Assembly: GCA_965214835.1 (NCBI GenBank) | Contig: CBDCCK010000002.1 | Span: forward strand, 1,504,001 to 1,568,000 | Reading direction: 5' to 3' | Origin: Nitrosopumilaceae archaeon | Lineage (GTDB): Archaea; Thermoproteota; Nitrososphaeria; Nitrososphaerales; Nitrosopumilaceae | Length of the DNA: 64,000 bases | In this document: piece after piece, positions 9,049 through 44,980 of the stretch | Numbering within the stretch: position 1 is the first letter of the stretch | Layout of the letters: each line of letters begins with the position of its first letter | The notes under the pieces: model-generated | What the model was told of the DNA's origin: nothing | Database searches by the model: none | Seen by the model: the letters and a program-made list of their open reading frames with translations, nothing else | Program-made: the position numbers and the translations under genes

Positions 9049-10371
9049 TTATCTTCCCAGGCCGATCGCTTTAAAGTCAATACCTGAAAACTTTTCTGGC
9101 TCAAAGATCCTTCGCGCATCTATGACCCTTGGCCTTTTCATGATCTTCCTCAATTTGTTCTCGCCCAGTCTCCTGTACGTGTCCCATTCAGTCAAGATTA
9201 GACAGCAGTCTGAATTCTTTAAACACGACGCAACGGATTTTGAATACTCGATCTTTCCATCAAAAATTTTTTCAAAATTCGCCATTGCCATGGGATCGTG
9301 AACCTTGATTTTTATTCCCCGTCTTAACAGCAACTTGGCAATCTTTACTGAAATGGCCTCTCTGATGTCATCTGTGTCTTTTTTAAACGCAAGCCCCAAG
9401 ATTGAGACGGTTCTTCCCTTTTTGTAAACCCCCATCTCTTTCATTAGTTGAACAATCTTTTTTGGCTGTAGATCATTTACGTTTTTTACTGCCTCAAAAA
9501 ACCTGTCTGAATCAGACTGCTTTTTTGAATAGTGGATCAGCCCCTTCAAATCTTTGGGCAGACAGCTGCCGCCGAATCCAGGACCTGCTTTTAAAAACAG
9601 CGGTCCTGTGCGTGGATCCTTGCTAATCGCATACGTTATGGCATTCACATCCGAATTTGGAATATTTTGGCACACGTTTGCAATCGAGTTGATAAAGCTG
9701 ATCTTTGTTGCAAGAAACGCATTGTTTGCATATTTGATCAGTTCGGCATTCGAATAGTCCGTATGAATGACCTCGGGCATCTTTGAATAAAATTTTCTGT
9801 AATATCTTTCAAGCATCATGCCATGGGATCTCTCGTCTTCTCCTATTAAGATTAGATGGGGCTTTGACAAGTCCTTTATGGCAAATCCCTCCTTCAAAAA
9901 TTCCGGATTTACCACCAGAACTAGCCTGTCTTTCTCAATCAGCGTTTTGACTATGGGCCGAATGACATTCTTTGTGGTCAGCGGCGCCAGCGTGCTTTTG
10001 ACAACCAGCATGTGTCTTCTTTTTTTGTCTTTCAAGGCCGAGTTTATCTGGGAAACTGCCTTCTTTACAAACGAGAGGTCTATCTCTCCGGACACTTTTG
10101 ACGGGGTTCCTACTGTAAGAAACGTGATATCCGTCTCCCTTATCGATGAGATGTCCGTTGTAAATCTTATCTTTTCATTTTTTATGGATTTTTTTAGAAT
10201 ATCTTCCAATTGTGGCTCATAAAAGTCTGGAATCCCCTTTTTCAACCCGTTTATCTTTTCATCGTTACTGTCTATTCCCACCGTGTAAAACCCTTTTTTG
10301 GAATTGACCGCTGCCAGGGATAGGCCAACAAACCCCAAACCCACTACGGAAATCTTGTCCATGCCTGCCAT
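9049..10371 (-). CDS. ugd: UDP-glucose 6-dehydrogenase family protein
   Basis: VVGLGFVG, VGTP, VKST, NPEFLKEG, GFGGSCLPKD, GLAFKKDTDDIRE. Confidence 0.9.
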   Translation of the reverse strand: MAGMDKISVVGLGFVGLSLAAVNSKKGFYTVGIDSNDEKINGLKKGIPDFYEPQLEDILKKSIKNEKIRFTTDISSIRETDITFLTVGTPSKVSGEIDLSFVKKAVSQINSALKDKKRRHMLVVKSTLAPLTTKNVIRPIVKTLIEKDRLVLVVNPEFLKEGFAIKDLSKPHLILIGEDERSHGMMLERYYRKFYSKMPEVIHTDYSNAELIKYANNAFLATKISFINSIANVCQNIPNSDVNAITYAISKDPRTGPLFLKAGPGFGGSCLPKDLKGLIHYSKKQSDSDRFFEAVKNVNDLQPKKIVQLMKEMGVYKKGRTVSILGLAFKKDTDDIREAISVKIAKLLLRRGIKIKVHDPMAMANFEKIFDGKIEYSKSVASCLKNSDCCLILTEWDTYRRLGENKLRKIMKRPRVIDARRIFEPEKFSGIDFKAIGLGR

Positions 10372-10835
10372 GTTGTATTTGAACCATGATCTTGCACAAT
10401 AAATAAATATCACCTACGAAAAATTTACCCGTTTTTTGATCCTGTTGATTTTTCAGACATTTGTGCAATCCTTGCAACATCTGCTGCTTTTTGACCGTTC
10501 CCTTGCTGGAGCTGTTTTTTCATAACGCATCTGAAAAATCGTAACAGGTAGGGCCCTGGAAGTTCAGGCACGGGTTTTGCCGTCCTGGAGGTCTCCCAGG
10601 ATCCGAACTGCTGCGTCTGGCGTGTGTATCGTCTGCACCAAAATCCGGCAGGATTGCAGGCAGATCAGCGGGGATCCGACTCTTGCTGGATCCAAACCCG
10701 CCCGGTATTGGGCTTGTCGCACGTATCCCTTGACTGCTGAAAAGGGATGGAGTGTATGGGAACAGCCTTCCGCCTTTTGGACAAAGCGCCCCACCTCCCA
10801 ACTGCTTGCATGACGGGCCCGCCTTGGCGGCCTGA

Positions 10836-13590: not shown

Positions 13591-13765
13591 CTACGTCAGC
13601 CATCTGTTCATCTTTACCATCTTTATCTCGCCTCTGCGCAGCATGACGCGTATGGACTTTTGCAGCTCGCCGACGGTCCTGTACAGGCGGTTTGCAGTCG
13701 CCTTTTTGACCCCACGCCACTGCCCCTCTATCGGGCTCAGCTCCGGCGTGTACGGCGGCAGGAAT
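13591..13765 (-). pseudogene. IS630 transposase C-terminal fragment
   Basis: FLPPYTPELSPIEGQWRGVKKATANRLY, homologous to 8740-8916. Confidence 0.85.
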
Positions 13766-13953
13766 TAGGCGACATCCATCCATGGTAAAACGCCCGCCAG
13801 TAACATGGCAACGTTCCTTTCGTCTTCTGATCCGTGCCTAGTCGGCCGGGCCGTGCTTTATAGCTAACGCTAGCAATACGCACGAGCCAGTCCTGTCGCA
13901 CCTGCCAGGGTGCGGCCGATCATTGGGTGGGTGGGGGATGGAAGGTGGTAATC

Positions 13954-15031
13954 CTATGCCGTTCCCACCAGTTCTGTCACCCTCTTGATCTTCCTGTCGT
14001 ACAGTGCAGCATTGCGCGATGAATACGCAGTCTTTGTCGTCAGCATGTGCCAGATTATCCTGAGCATCTTGTTTGCAACATGCGTTATCGCTATGACGTG
14101 GCTGTTGCCGTTCCTTTTGCGGATCCTCTCGTAGAACTCTTTCATCCTGTCGTCGTGCTGTGCGGCGACGTTGGCTATCTGGCCCATCAGCCATTTGATC
14201 CTGCGGTTTGCATCCTTTTTCATGCGGCCGTGGTACTCGCGGTCCCCAGACTGGTACACCCGGGGACACATGCCGGCCCAGGACACCAGATGATTCGGTG
14301 ATGGAAACCGGGTTATGTCGCCGATCTCTGCCAGCAGCAGCATTGCAGCAAACGAGTCTATCCCCGTCATACTCAGCAGCAGCTTTGCGTCCTCGTTCAG
14401 TCCCGCCTGTCTTCCTATGTCCTCCTCCATCTGGCCTATCTCCTCTGTGACCGATGCAATCCTCCGGGTACAGCTTGCCAGTATCCTGTTGTCGTTTGGC
14501 ATGTCCAGTTTTGTCTCGGACAGCTTCCGTATGGCCTTCCTAGAGTACATCGTGGATGCATCTATGGTTATGTCGTACTTGTCAAGCCAAGCTGTGCAGC
14601 CCGTTTACGACTGCGGTCCTCTCCTGCACCATCCGTATCCTGTACCTCATCAGCTCCCTGACATCCCTCAGGTCTGGAGGGGCCACGTAGCATCGTGGTA
14701 TGATTCCGGCCCTGAGCGTGTCGGTTATCTTCCTTGCGTCTATCGGGTCAGTCTTTACGCTGGTCTCCGATACTATCTTCATCTTGAGGGTGTTTGCAAG
14801 CAGTATGGGGATATGCTGATCCTCGAACGCCCTGAACGTCTTCAGCCACGTGTTGCCCGTTGACTCGCACGCGGCCTGGCACCTTTTGTACTCTTTTTTC
14901 AGCCTGGCTGCAAGCCTTGCTGCCTCCTTGTACGTGTTGTCATACGAGCCCTCCTCCAGTACGTGTCCCTTGGCGTCGATGACGCACACTACACATCTTC
15001 TCTTTCCAATGTCTATTCCTATGTTTATCAA
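13954..15031 (-). pseudogene. IS110 recombinase with a single 1-nt frameshift near 14588
   Basis: GIDIGK, ACESTG, KTDPIDA in one frame; LDKY...AGMCPRVYQSG in the next. TTG start at 15031 with GGAGGTG upstream. Confidence 0.88.
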
Positions 15032-15068
15032 TCCTTTTGTTTCACCTCCTCTCGGATCATGGTTCGAC

Positions 15069-15204
15069 GGATCAGAAGCTGCAGTCATCCATCAGTGCGC
15101 GAAGCACAGGAACACAGCAGCGCGGATATCCCCATTCAACTACGAGTGCGCGAAGCACATGAAAATGAAGGGGTTGATCCATCACCCTGACTACGGCGGG
15201 GGTG
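15069..15204 (-). ncRNA. Predicted bridge RNA of IS110 element B (left-end encoded)
   Basis: Two copies of hairpin AGTGCGCGAAGCACA (15094-15108, 15145-15159), each inside a closed internal loop whose strands match the element junctions. Confidence 0.75.
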
Positions 15205-15343
15205 TTTTTATCATGTGTTCAACTACTGCTATAGTGACGATTAAAAGTTTTTGAGCGCATGTGGGCATAAGCTACGCTGGAAGGCGCCTTTTGATGATCA
15301 AAGACTTTTAATCGCCACTATAGGAGAAGAATTCCTGATACAC

Positions 15344-15495
15344 ATGACTGATATCATAACGTGGCCCAACTTCTTCTATGTGGCCCCTCAAAAGACAGGA
15401 ACGACTACGATGTACCATGTTCTGAGGGGGATCCGTGAGATGTATGTACCTTCCATGAAGGAGATGGCTTACTTTACACGCCGTATCACCAAGAA
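15344..15495 (+). pseudogene. Sulfotransferase N-terminal fragment
   Basis: WPNFFYVAPQKTGTTTMY...KEMAYF, a PAPS-binding loop; similarity is lost afterwards. Confidence 0.7.
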
Positions 15496-15844
15496 GCAGT
15501 CCTTGGGAATGTTAAACATGGTTTTATCTGGAGCTCGGTCTTTTTTAGAGGTTCGCTGCCTGCCGGACCTTGAAAGGTTGTTTAGATTTGCCATGATTTT
15601 TGACCATACCCGACTAATGTTGAAAAATCAGGTTTTTAAGTGGAACTGGGACATTAACTGGTGTTTGTTCCCCTTGGGACCAGGTTGTGGCCGATGAGGC
15701 CAAGGAGCTGATATCCCGTAGATGTAGGTTCGTCGGCATACTGCCCAACGGCAAGGTGGTGCTGGAAAGGCAGGACGTGAACCGCAGTAGGTTCACATCT
15801 GCAAAGACTGGATTTAAATTGTCTTGGGAGTCATCCTGCAATCA

Positions 15845-17293
15845 ATGCCACCAATTGTCCCCAAAAAGGTAGGCGGCTCACAGTATGTCATAGAGCCTGA
15901 TTCTACAAATGACATGAGGATCCCCGTCAGGATATATGCAAGCGAGGATCTGATCTCAAAAATGATGACGGATCGAACCCTGAAGCAGGCCGCAAACGTC
16001 GCATCCATGCCCGGAATCGTAAGCCACGGGGTGGTACTGCCTGACGGCCACGAGGGATACGGGTTTCCTGTCGGAGGCGTCGCGGCCATGGATGCAGAGG
16101 AGGGAATGATCAGCCCCGGCGGCGTGGGATACGACATCAACTGCGGGGTCAGGCTGCTCCGGACAAGCCTTTCTGAAGATCAGGCCCGCGCAAGACTAAG
16201 GGATCTGGTCACTGACCTGTTCGGATCCATTCCCTCGGGCGTGGGCTCCAAGGGGGCAGTAAGGTTGAGCCGCTCCCAGCTAGACGAGGTCCTCGTCCGC
16301 GGAGTCAGCTGGGCAATCGATAACGGGTACGGGACTGCCGGCGACAGGGACGTCTGTGAGGAGAATGGCGAGATCAGGCAGGCAGACCCCGGCAAGGTCT
16401 CTGACAGGGCCCGAAAGCGGGGTGCGCCGCAGCTTGGAAGCCTCGGCTCTGGCAACCACTTTTTGGAGATTCAAAAGGTGGCAGAGGTTCATGACGAGGA
16501 GGCGGCCGGACGGATGGGGCTTGAGGAGGGCTCCATTACCGTGCTGATCCACTGCGGCTCCCGCGGGCTTGGCCACCAGGTATGCAGCGACTATCTCAGG
16601 ATCTGCGAGCAGTCCATGCGGAAATACGGCATTGATCTGCCAGACAGGGAGCTTGCATGCGTTCCAAACGCGTCCGAGGAGGGTGAATCGTACAGGAAGG
16701 CCATGTTTGCGGCGCTGAACTTTGCCTGGAGCAACCGCCAGATGATTACGCACTGGACGAGAAGGTCGTTTGAGCGCGTCTTTGGGATGTCCGAGTCAGA
16801 CCTGGACATGAGGCTGGTATACGACGTATCCCACAACATTGCCAAGGTTGAAAAACACAGGGTGGATGGAGGGGAGAGAAGCCTCGTCGTGCACAGAAAG
16901 GGTGCAACGCGGGCGTTTCCTGCCAATCGCGAGGAGGTCCCGCAAAGGTACCGCGATATCGGCCAGCCCGTGTTCATTCCCGGCTCCATGGGTACTGCAA
17001 GCTGGGTGCTGCTCGGCCAGCCCGGATCCATGGATCTGAGCTTCGGCTCCACAGCGCACGGGGCAGGCAGGACGATGTCAAGATCAAGGGCGCGCAGGAG
17101 CTTTACCGAGCACGACGTCAAAAAGTCCCTGGGCGACAGGGGCATCTACATCAAGGCGCTGACCAGGGACGGCGTGGTCGAGGAGACTCCCCAGGCCTAC
17201 AAGGACGTCGACTCCGTCGTGGACGTCTCGCACGGCTTGGGAATCGCAACAAAGGTCGCCAAGCTAACCCCGGTTGGAGTGATCAAGGGTTGA
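15845..17293 (+). CDS. rtcB: RNA-splicing ligase RtcB
   Basis: LPDGHEGYGFPVGG, GYDINCGVR, GSGNHFLE, HCGSRGLG, HRKGATRA, HGAGR, QAYKD. TTTAAA box about 30 nt upstream. Confidence 0.97.
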   Translation: MPPIVPKKVGGSQYVIEPDSTNDMRIPVRIYASEDLISKMMTDRTLKQAANVASMPGIVSHGVVLPDGHEGYGFPVGGVAAMDAEEGMISPGGVGYDINCGVRLLRTSLSEDQARARLRDLVTDLFGSIPSGVGSKGAVRLSRSQLDEVLVRGVSWAIDNGYGTAGDRDVCEENGEIRQADPGKVSDRARKRGAPQLGSLGSGNHFLEIQKVAEVHDEEAAGRMGLEEGSITVLIHCGSRGLGHQVCSDYLRICEQSMRKYGIDLPDRELACVPNASEEGESYRKAMFAALNFAWSNRQMITHWTRRSFERVFGMSESDLDMRLVYDVSHNIAKVEKHRVDGGERSLVVHRKGATRAFPANREEVPQRYRDIGQPVFIPGSMGTASWVLLGQPGSMDLSFGSTAHGAGRTMSRSRARRSFTEHDVKKSLGDRGIYIKALTRDGVVEETPQAYKDVDSVVDVSHGLGIATKVAKLTPVGVIKG

Positions 17294-43876: not shown

Positions 43877-44980
43877 TTACGCACCCCCTATGCACTGATT
43901 GAAGGTCATCTGCTTCTTTAGCATCCAGTATGATATGCGCAGCAGCTTGGATGCGGCAGCCACCGTAGCCTTGGACCTTCCTCTCCTCTTTGCAAGCCTC
44001 TTGTAAAAGACAGATACCGGCGAGCCTGGCGGCGCGTATCTTACGTGGCTGTGCACCGACTCCACCAGGAACCATCTCATCATGGGGCTGCCCCTCTTTG
44101 TTATCCTGCCATAGTGGACGGTGTCTGCAGAGTTTCTCACCGATGACACCAGTCCTGCATACGCGCACAGCTTGTGCGAGTCGGCAAACCTGTCAACGCC
44201 GTCTATCTCCGATGCAACAGTCAGCGCGGTGTACCTGCCAAATCCCGGAGTCGACGACAGCAAGACGGCATCCGGGCTGTCGGCTATTGCGTCCTTGATG
44301 CGCAGATCAGCGCGTGCCATCCTGTCGTTTATAGAGTCAATTATGCCCAGCCTGTCATCTATCCTAAAATTGCCCAGCCTTCTCACCCTTGAGATCCACG
44401 GTGCCGAGAACGGGTCTCCTCTTATCTGTATCCTGTTTTGCAGCAGTATTGCGTGTATCTGGTTCTTTAGTATGGTTCTTGACTGCACCATCTTTGCGCG
44501 GTGCCTAGTCAGCTGCCTGTTCTGTACCGTCTTGCTAGATGGAGCATAGCACGCAGATATGTATCCTCCCCTGAGAAGATCTGCCAGGATCTGCGCGTCT
44601 ACCTTGTCGGTCTTTTTCTTTGACGTTGCAATGACCTTGGTCTCAAACGGGTTTGAGAGGATCACGTCTTGCTTGAGATCGTCTGCAATGAACCTGAACA
44701 GCCCGTACCACACGGAGGACGACTCCATGACGCACTTGGCGTTCTCCGGGATCCTTGCAAACGCCTTCCTTATCTCGCTGTCCCTGTTGCGGATTCTTGT
44801 GTTGCTCAGCACCTTGCCGTCCTTGTCCATCACTGCAATCTGGATGGACTCCTTGTGCACGTCCAGGCCGACATACTGCTGTTGCACCGCCTTTTTCATA
44901 CGTATCCTTTTTTTTGAGGCAATCTGTTTGTTTGCATTGCCTTTTATTCTGGCACCATCTGAATTTCGTTTTTGAGGCAC
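43877..44980 (-). CDS. IS110-family DEDD recombinase
   Basis: VGLDVHK, VMESS, KTDKVDA, YAGL..SVRNSA, GRITKRG. Confidence 0.95.
   Translation of the reverse strand: MPQKRNSDGARIKGNANKQIASKKRIRMKKAVQQQYVGLDVHKESIQIAVMDKDGKVLSNTRIRNRDSEIRKAFARIPENAKCVMESSSVWYGLFRFIADDLKQDVILSNPFETKVIATSKKKTDKVDAQILADLLRGGYISACYAPSSKTVQNRQLTRHRAKMVQSRTILKNQIHAILLQNRIQIRGDPFSAPWISRVRRLGNFRIDDRLGIIDSINDRMARADLRIKDAIADSPDAVLLSSTPGFGRYTALTVASEIDGVDRFADSHKLCAYAGLVSSVRNSADTVHYGRITKRGSPMMRWFLVESVHSHVRYAPPGSPVSVFYKRLAKRRGRSKATVAAASKLLRISYWMLKKQMTFNQCIGGA

Follow-up and report, generated by a model that had tools for sequence, protein, structure and literature searches.

Mobile elements in which a small RNA specifies both the insertion site and the element's own ends have been known since 2024. 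The bridge (or seek) RNA recombinases are under development as programmable genome-writing tools, and the characterised examples are almost all bacterial. Here we describe an archaeal candidate found in a stretch of 64,000 nucleotides from a Nitrosopumilaceae archaeon (assembly GCA_965214835.1, contig CBDCCK010000002.1, positions 1,504,001 to 1,568,000), here called the window; it corresponds to G000:C2:1504001-1568000, and coordinates without a prefix are those of the window. The element, an insertion sequence (IS) of the IS110 family, occupies positions 13777-15221 on the minus strand. With a probability of about 0.9 it is a decayed archaeal RNA-guided IS with a bridge RNA encoded on the strand of the recombinase gene, loop 1 of this RNA reading the target and loop 2 the donor, and by its features it is of the IS1111 type.

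The protein family has been found experimentally to be RNA-guided (PMC11208160, PMC11187229). In IS621 (Durrant et al. 2024, PMC11208160; Hiraizumi et al. 2024, PMC11208158), the RNA is located in the left end upstream of the gene and has a target loop and a donor loop; the second of these papers gives RNA positions 50-58 for the left target guide (LTG), 77-80 for the right target guide (RTG) and 81-82 for the handshake bases. According to Siddiquee et al. 2024 (PMC11187229), RNAs of the IS1111 type have the top-strand match on the 5' side of the bottom-strand match, and the elements have subterminal repeats with tips of 7 bp and 3 bp. In the same work, the non-coding region of IS1111-type elements is usually downstream of the gene, a few exceptions being ISMtsp17 (upstream), ISHvo10 and ISAcp5 (both sides).

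The locus considered here shares features with both systems. As in IS621, the left end upstream of the gene holds the RNA with its target loop and donor loop, either loop has a guide for each strand, the guides overlap at a 2-nt core, and one guide has a 2-nt handshake-like extension. In contrast to IS621, both loops have their guides in the opposite order, TG takes the place of CT as the core, and the subterminal repeats are long rather than of 2-3 bp. The DEDD recombinase, the RNA matches to both target strands and the natural reprogramming among relatives are common to this element and the IS1111-type elements ISEc11, ISKpn4 and ISPa11. Unlike those, its RNA is upstream of the gene, non-coding ends of about 180-190 nt are present on both sides, the hosts are archaeal, and the repeats are longer and less perfect than the usual IS1111 repeats (11-13 bp, near-perfect).

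In both loops of the RNA the top-strand match is 5' of the bottom-strand match, which is the IS1111-type order. The tips are TGAACAC (7 nt, with the core included on the left side) and GGA (3 nt); in G152 they are TGAATGC and AGG. The guide order, the subterminal repeats and the 7/3-nt tips thus point to an IS1111-type element with the RNA in its left end. The recombinase contains the motif GL-P----SG, which does not discriminate for IS1111 kinship, since ISCro4 has it too. The best named protein match is ISHvo10 from Haloferax volcanii pHV4 (30% identity over 93% of the query, E = 2e-37), which is also archaeal and, according to PMC11187229, also has long non-coding regions up- and downstream of the gene. 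A match on a Klebsiella plasmid carries only the annotation "IS110 family transposase". By eye, an outer helix GTGAATCA/TGATTCAC can be seen in its upstream region. A first-pass annotation of this DNA, made from the letters alone, had called the layout mixed. The features are as described there; however, the mixture is not a new one, as IS1111-type features combined with an upstream RNA form an exception class already present in PMC11187229. The layout is therefore a known, rare exception (ISHvo10-like), and the current understanding is not overturned.

The boundaries of the element are defined by its copies. Homology to eight other full-length copies in the genome begins and stops at 13777 and 15221, and the element consists of the left core TG (15221-15220), the body and the right core TG (13778-13777). 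The copy 514651 (G000:C2, minus strand), assigned to type A, is 86% identical to the window copy and is the sole full-length copy with an unbroken gene (359 codons). Subfamily B comprises seven full-length copies with 92% identity to the window copy. In addition there are many fragments, two C copies with 65% identity, and one more B copy, the eighth, which is rearranged. The window copy itself has a mosaic sequence: over the first 100 nt it is the same as A, and in the remainder it is nearest to B. One relative was found in a wider contig search, namely L031, which lies on a contig of a metagenome-assembled genome (MAG) labelled Nitrosopumilaceae and consists of the first 482 nt of a 95.6% identical copy.

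The non-coding ends have lengths of about 180-190 nt (left) and about 175-190 nt (right). A repeat search revealed a subterminal inverted repeat in each. The left repeat ATGATAAAAACACCCCCGCC (15195-15214, minus strand) is preceded by the 7-nt tip TGAACAC, and the right repeat GGCGGGCGTTTTACCAT (13782-13798, minus strand) is followed by the 3-nt tip GGA and the core TG. The two repeats pair in the junction folds of all five elements folded. ATGATAAAAAC pairs with ATGGTAAAAC; the first 11 nt contain a single mismatch and a single gap, and the pairing continues, imperfectly, up to about 20 nt.

The candidate bridge RNA (15051-15193, minus strand) is the single match of our covariance model in the window (159.5 bits). 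It is a two-loop RNA located directly upstream of the recombinase gene, on the gene's strand, with a length of about 125-145 nt (143 nt in the model match). The outer helix is formed by GATGGATCA (15183-15175) and TGATCCGTC (15074-15066). Loop 1 is closed by the strands CCCC (15173-15170) and GGGG (15133-15130) and contains the hairpin GTGC-TTCGC-GCAC (15158-15146); loop 2 is closed by GCTGC (15121-15117) and GCAGC (15082-15078) and contains the same hairpin (15107-15095). The enclosing helix, the two loops and the identical hairpins had been described in the first-pass annotation, and the letters of the minus strand read exactly as stated there.

The covariance model was built from an alignment of 14 left ends from the same genome, which form a five-helix structure (96.4% paired). 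The intact protein was searched in 301 genomes of the same class, 45 of which have a match at E<=1e-30, and the model was then scanned over 30 related loci, 29 from this search and L031. It matches 25 of the 30 loci at E<=1 and 24 at E<0.001, these E-values being rough; no match was observed in L048, L055, L058, L060 and L061. All of the 24 matches in loci from the protein search share the strand of the gene and precede the recombinase by 2-254 nt. In the 25 sequences, 96.2% of 607 cells are paired and changes on both sides occur in 21 of 26 pairs, as counted in alignments that are fitted to the model and hence favour it. Neither value was equalled in any of 500 shuffles, and slid controls were 33-45% paired. 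There are 32 G.U cells and 6 A.C cells, which favours the gene's strand as the RNA strand. The strand, left for determination by the first annotation, and the fold are thus supported by this count and by the covarying helices. The single-sequence fold of the left end is unexceptional on its own (z = -1.53).

The four loop strands contain candidate guides. In loop 1, the 5' guide TTCATTTTCAT (15159-15169, minus strand) is complementary to the top strand of the core and the right target, TG-AAAATGA. The 3' guide TCGTAGTTGAAT (15134-15145, minus strand) is identical to the left target GTAGT, the core TG and the AA of the left end; its portion GTAGTTGAA (within 15145-15134) coincides with 15226-15218 in nine of nine positions. 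In loop 2, the 5' guide TGTGTTCCT (15108-15116, minus strand) is complementary to the core G and the left end AACACA, TGTGTTC (15116-15110) being the reverse complement of GAACACA at 15220-15214 (7/7). The 3' guide TGATGGATGACT (15083-15094, minus strand) is identical to the right end ATGGA, the core TG and a following A, and GATGGATG (15093-15086) coincides with 13780-13773 (8/8). The latter match is aided by a 4-nt GATG duplication peculiar to the window copy. Other copies end in ...CCATGGATG and have a 7/7 match, or a 9/9 match (ATGGATGAA) across the inferred end-to-end junction. All three guide matches (9/9, 7/7 and 8/8) had been reported before and proved exact at the coordinates given.

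The significance of these matches was estimated by shuffling the four loop strands 5000 times and comparing them with 36-nt sections at both junctions. A match at least as long as the observed one was found in 15 (9-mer), 101 (7-mer) and 68 (8-mer) of the 5000 shuffles, and at least three strands with a match of at least 7 nt occurred in two. Such a shuffling test had been named in advance as a possible refutation; it did not refute the guide reading. The fourth strand has no match at the window copy's own junctions (the longest is 4 nt).

The core dinucleotide was deduced from the B copies. Their left junctions read ..TAGCCTGT-TG-AACACA.. (CCTGT-TG-AACACA next to the core), their right junctions read ..CCATGGA-TG-CATAAC.. 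(GGA-TG-CATAAC), and TG is the only dinucleotide common to both, so the crossover core is TG (15221-15220). The core GAA proposed initially is not borne out. In loop 1 5' guides of relatives, the complement of the core is CA, UG, CG or UA, all of which pair with TG if a G.T wobble is allowed. In most relatives, TG is followed by AA in the loop 1 3' guide. These are the first two bases of the left end, whereas in several subfamilies the target has other bases at this position (CA in B, TT in G152, CC in G036). This AA resembles the handshake of IS621, although on the other guide. Handshake pairing had been suggested by the first annotation on the basis of a single T; the AA after TG is a more distinct handshake-like feature, and the T is nearly invariant.

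The sequence of the fourth guide had been used to predict the lost right flank of the window copy. The intact A copy 514651 has the left junction cAGTAGT-TG-AACACA and the right junction CATGGA-TG-AAAATGcacc, and thus the right junction GGATGAAAATG predicted for other copies is present exactly in this sister. The inferred empty site GTAGTTGAAAATG occurs in the genome 23 times exactly and 17 more times with one mismatch, the expectation for a 13-mer in 2 x 3.2 Mb being, by our own arithmetic, about 0.1 exact copies. Hence both the search for empty sites proposed in the first annotation and the prediction from the fourth guide gave the anticipated result: the guide TTCATTTTCAT fits the right junction of 514651 and the 23 empty sites, and it covaries with right flanks. 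The exact sites form inverted pairs about 1363 bp apart and are the tips of a 1.37-kb IS with a DDE_Tnp_1 open reading frame (ORF). By its guides, the RNA of the window copy is programmed for GTAGT-TG-AAAATG, located in the terminal repeat of this DDE IS.

Other guide classes have other targets of the same kind. The B empty site CCTGTTGCATAAC occurs four times exactly and 26 times with one mismatch, and some of these sites are at the tips of IS with DDE_Tnp_1/DDE_Tnp_1_5. In the D class, the reverse complement of the 5' guide is A-TG-TCGCGTAA. It fits GGGGT-TG-TCGCCTAATTC, the terminal repeat of a family of miniature inverted-repeat transposable elements (MITEs) that is IS630-like; 113 genomic ends read GGGGTTG followed by TCGCCTAATTC. 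The guide classes A, B and D thus each address an IS or MITE of their own, at its terminal repeat.

Covariation of guides and flanks was analysed in relatives, with loop strands taken from the model alignments and ends located by conserved end motifs, by comparing cognate and permuted pairs. The loop 1 3' guide and the left flank (32 unique pairs) agree in 4.28 of 6 positions in cognate and 2.12 in permuted pairs; for the loop 1 5' guide and the right flank (27 unique pairs) the values are 3.85 of 7 and 2.05, and for the loop 2 5' guide and the left end (14 unique pairs) 4.86 of 6 and 4.04. In each of these three comparisons, none of 20000 permutations gave a value as high, although such counts overstate independence, as the relatives are kin. 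Sister subfamilies have different loop 1 guides, each matching its own flanks. Copies with unrelated right flanks, initially regarded as potential counter-evidence, carry correspondingly different guides.

The proposed mechanism is as follows. Within the outer helix lie the two internal loops, both interrupted by a small hairpin. The 5' strand of loop 1 is complementary to the top strand of the core and the right target. The 3' strand has the sequence of the left target and TG, and therefore would pair with the bottom strand; it extends 2 nt into the left end of the element (AA), that is, into the product junction. Loop 2 would read the donor, composed of the right end, TG and the left end of the circularised element, in like manner. 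By analogy with the work on IS621 and ISEc11, the DEDD recombinase would then, with the RNA bound to it, join the circle junction and the target, with strand exchange at TG. Direct evidence at this locus comes from the sequences and their fold, from covariation, and from sites both empty and filled.

One alternative is that the element belongs to the IS110 group (IS621-like), with RNA loops that are circularly permuted, and has no special kinship with IS1111. Indeed, an upstream RNA is what the IS110 group has; among relatives with a solved structure, only IS621 and ISCro4 were found (E about 1e-8, in the C-terminal domain only); and NCBIfam has only one general IS110 model. However, the guide order is of the IS1111 type in both loops, subterminal repeats of about 17-20 nt with tips of 7 and 3 nt fit the IS1111 definition, and ISHvo10, the nearest named relative, is placed among diverged relatives of the IS1111 cluster in PMC11187229. 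We consider this alternative unlikely and read the element as IS1111-type with an upstream RNA. The other alternatives concern the guides themselves. The internal copies of flanks and ends might be DNA sites, either protein-binding repeats or remnants of nested insertions: the long inverted repeats at the ends could act as DNA, and in the right end there is another sequence complementary, at the DNA level, to the left end. On the other hand, the helices around the guides covary and have the excess of G.U over A.C cells (32 vs 6), the guides vary with the target at a protein identity of 80-100%, and proteins of this family are RNA-guided in experiments (PMC11208160, PMC11187229), which makes DNA sites a very improbable explanation. 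Chance matches in the single window copy are hardly credible at all. One strand often reaches 7 nt (871 of 5000 shuffles had at least one strand with such a match), but three strands did so together in only two of 5000, the independent prediction of the fourth guide came true, and the permutations gave 0 of 20000.

Apart from the dependence of the pair counts on the model, several observations weigh against the interpretation of the element as an RNA-guided IS of the IS1111 type. The assignment to this type is made by features, and the RNA model with filters off has no match in the loci of ISHvo10 and its Haloarcula relative (the best E is 0.3). No Rfam family was found at gathering thresholds across the window, and at E up to 10 the region 13700-15300 has only four chance-level matches. 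The four sequencing runs listed come from one study and none is recorded as RNA; thus the expression and the ends of the RNA are predicted. The core T is left unpaired by the loop 2 5' guide, which has CC in place of CA. The covariation of the loop 2 3' guide with the right end (8 unique pairs) is weak, with 4.12 of 6 in cognate pairs, 3.60 in permuted pairs and 446 of 20000 permutations as high. The outermost position of the 6-nt left guide seldom matches. Eight of the 27 right pairs have at most two identities out of seven, some of them because of mislocated right ends; such errors of the pattern, as in L010, also removed the best right pair from the test. Finally, the right flank misfits its own guide in several copies, including the window copy and two MITE-like copies. 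In the A-type copy 1302401/1301361 it is AAGTGTA against AAAATGA (3/7), and the fit is 0/7 in L067 and 4/7 in L063.

If the guides act as proposed, the family represents a natural reprogramming series, with at least four loop 1 specificities in one genome, each for a different terminal repeat of an IS or MITE and with both empty and filled sites. The combination of IS1111-type guide geometry and ends with a left-end RNA bears on the move of the RNA between the ends in the IS110/IS1111 split. In addition, the family offers recombinase-less miniatures with a complete bridge RNA.

Four complete miniatures of 372-377 nt were found (G000:C2:639987-640363, 2955617-2955990, 3124155-3124524 and 2139575-2139946), as well as two partial ones (G000:C2:655395-655671 and 10106-10408). 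They consist of the left 165 nt, with the full bridge RNA and its own loop 1 guides, joined to a right end of about 200 nt, and contain no gene. Their mutual identity is 84-90%, and there are several different loop 1 guides among them. Recombinase-less modules of the IS110 family that are scattered and presumably moved in trans are known from ISPpu9/ssr9, where the small RNA is not required for transposition, according to Pares-Guillen et al. 2025 (PMC12288879). The miniatures described here resemble those modules in the absence of the recombinase, and differ in that they retain the whole bridge RNA and the right end, with loop 1 guides of their own.

The preference for terminal repeats also has a parallel. 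The guide classes of the family are directed at the terminal repeats of IS and MITEs; likewise, the site-specific IS1111-family elements IS4321 and IS5075 are said to insert into the terminal inverted repeats of other transposons, as reported by Partridge and Hall in 2003. Those elements differ in having bacterial hosts and transposons of the Tn21 family as targets, and the likeness is one of description only.

The recombinase gene of the window copy is split into two parts. The N-terminal, DEDD/RuvC-like part (14582-15031, minus strand) extends from a TTG start, placed by homology to the intact paralogue 514651, to a premature TGA and matches PF01548 (DEDD_Tnp_IS110, E = 5.5e-26). The C-terminal part (13954-14604, minus strand) is in the +1 frame and matches Transposase_20 (PF02371, E = 1.5e-26). 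An alignment of nine copies places a 1-nt insertion at 14587-14590 (minus strand), where the window copy has TTGG and the intact paralogue has CT-G. The latter scores 234 bits (cut-off 140) with the NF033542 model "IS110 family RNA-guided transposase". It had been stated that the recombinase needs only a 1-nt repair. The split ORF is real and, compared with the intact paralogue, one nucleotide has been inserted; what is new is that all seven B copies have it as well. The frame break (GCT TGA C) is thus present in eight of the nine full-length copies (e.g. G000:C2:677612-679062), and because of it the window copy is probably not autonomous.

When the window copy is compared with a B copy, the two gene halves give dN/dS ratios of 0.36 and 0.29. 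These ratios and the sharing of the break would speak for a programmed +1 frameshift, which was considered and is not supported, the break site not being slippery. Identity between subfamilies is 92-98% in the 300 nt around the break and 84-93% over most of the remaining gene, and therefore a patch of gene conversion could have spread the break. Further, the recombinase matches in other genomes are mostly open, and none of the closest (46-62% identity) has a stop. Both facts argue against programmed frameshifting. The fragment L031 stops short of the break site and is uninformative in this respect. A shared break with dN/dS of about 0.3 might be explained by recoding or a split enzyme, by mobilisation in trans, or by a patch of gene conversion.

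The flanks of the window copy contain traces of several other elements. On the left, the target half CAGTAGT (15222-15228, minus strand) represents the first bases of the terminal inverted repeat of the 1.37-kb DDE IS. The outer left flank (15229-15323) is a 95-bp MITE (CTATAGTGGCGATT...AATCGTCACTATAG), at least four other genomic copies of which end at the same base. The order is therefore the MITE, CA, and then GTAGT, the start of the A-target repeat. On the right, the extra GATG between the core and the flank (13773-13776, minus strand) is a 4-nt tandem duplication found only in the window copy among eight right junctions. The right flank (13594-13772, minus strand) is non-cognate: it is TCGCCTAATTCC, the part of the MITE/IS630-like terminal repeat to the right of TG, fused to a DDE_3 remnant with the last 56 codons of a transposase (PF13358, E = 1.6e-5, below the Pfam cut-off).

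As TCGCCTAATTCC, the right half of a D-type target, sits after ..CCATGGA-TG and GATG, the cognate right half (AAAATG...) has been lost. The loss of the right flank had been proposed before; it can now be said that what took its place is the right half of the target of a different subfamily. The same pattern, in which the left flank fits and the right flank is TCGCCTAATTC, is seen in two miniatures, 639987 and 3124524. Such a swap could be either a homologous exchange between copies or a guide-independent (half-match) recombination. The recurrent half-matched flanks resemble the half-match recombination described for IS621 in a recent preprint (10.64898/2026.08.31.748434). The terminal repeat of the MITE/IS630-like family is GGGGTTGTCGCCTAATTC, and several IS110-type right ends abut precisely its internal TG, in place of GGGGTTG.

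The right end of the element contains a segment ACGGATCAGAAG (13824-13835, minus strand), found in the repeat search, which is a perfect 12-nt complement of 15067-15078, that is, of the 3' strand of the outer helix and the linker. It is located 47-53 nt from the tip, and this position is retained in several subfamilies, the number of complementary positions being 12/12 in the window copy and 12, 11 and 9 in a C copy, L037 and L077, respectively. In minimum-energy folds of a hypothetical junction-spanning RNA, the segment pairs with the 3' strand of the outer helix in five of five elements from four genomes. Counted in a fixed register, 8.3 of 12 positions are paired vs 7.2 in non-cognate combinations (nine elements, two of them mis-anchored, with own-genome rows left out), and the energies of the segment/outer-helix duplexes are -16.0 vs -12.0 kcal/mol. 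Given this small cognate excess, the complementarity is conserved but covaries weakly. No consensus structure was obtained from the fold of the right-end alignment (seven rows, one with wrong coordinates).

About 25 nt upstream of the segment, at about 85-100 nt from the tip, there is a motif CTAGCGNTAGCTWTAAA that is retained in six of six correctly placed rows. We take this motif and the left-end motif GATAAAAAC to resemble the archaeal TATA box. A speculative, rather improbable possibility is that the right end holds an archaeal promoter of its own along with a duplicate of the outer helix's 5' strand that pairs better than the original, and that the two together would serve as an RNA switch between the integrated and excised states. 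If so, only the circular or tandem form would yield a longer bridge RNA, transcribed from the right end across the junction. The subterminal repeats of this RNA would form a hairpin tipped by the donor core, and the alternative helix would close around both guide loops. Integrated copies would give only the short RNA, from the left-end promoter. A switch at the RNA level would be unlike the hybrid sigma-70 promoter of IS621.

Two copies in a related genome, L066 and L068 (G012:C1:1326264-1328731 and 1541778-1544245), have a left end without its first 8 nt (AACACATG). Both are nested in another repeated element with the ends CTGTGTCCTAC.../...GTAGGACACAG, and the pair looks like one insertion that was duplicated afterwards.

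The window contains a second IS110-family gene at 44438-44872 on the minus strand (G000:C2:1548438-1548872), with an open frame of 369 aa that matches PF01548 (E = 8.8e-27); the first annotation, which called the present element the second IS110, presumably counted this gene as the first. The RNA model has no match at this gene, which thus belongs to a different subfamily. Two host ORFs are adjacent to the element: 15251-15697 (plus strand, 148 aa), which has no Pfam match, and 15824-17293 (plus strand, 489 aa), whose product presumably resembles an RtcB-type RNA ligase.

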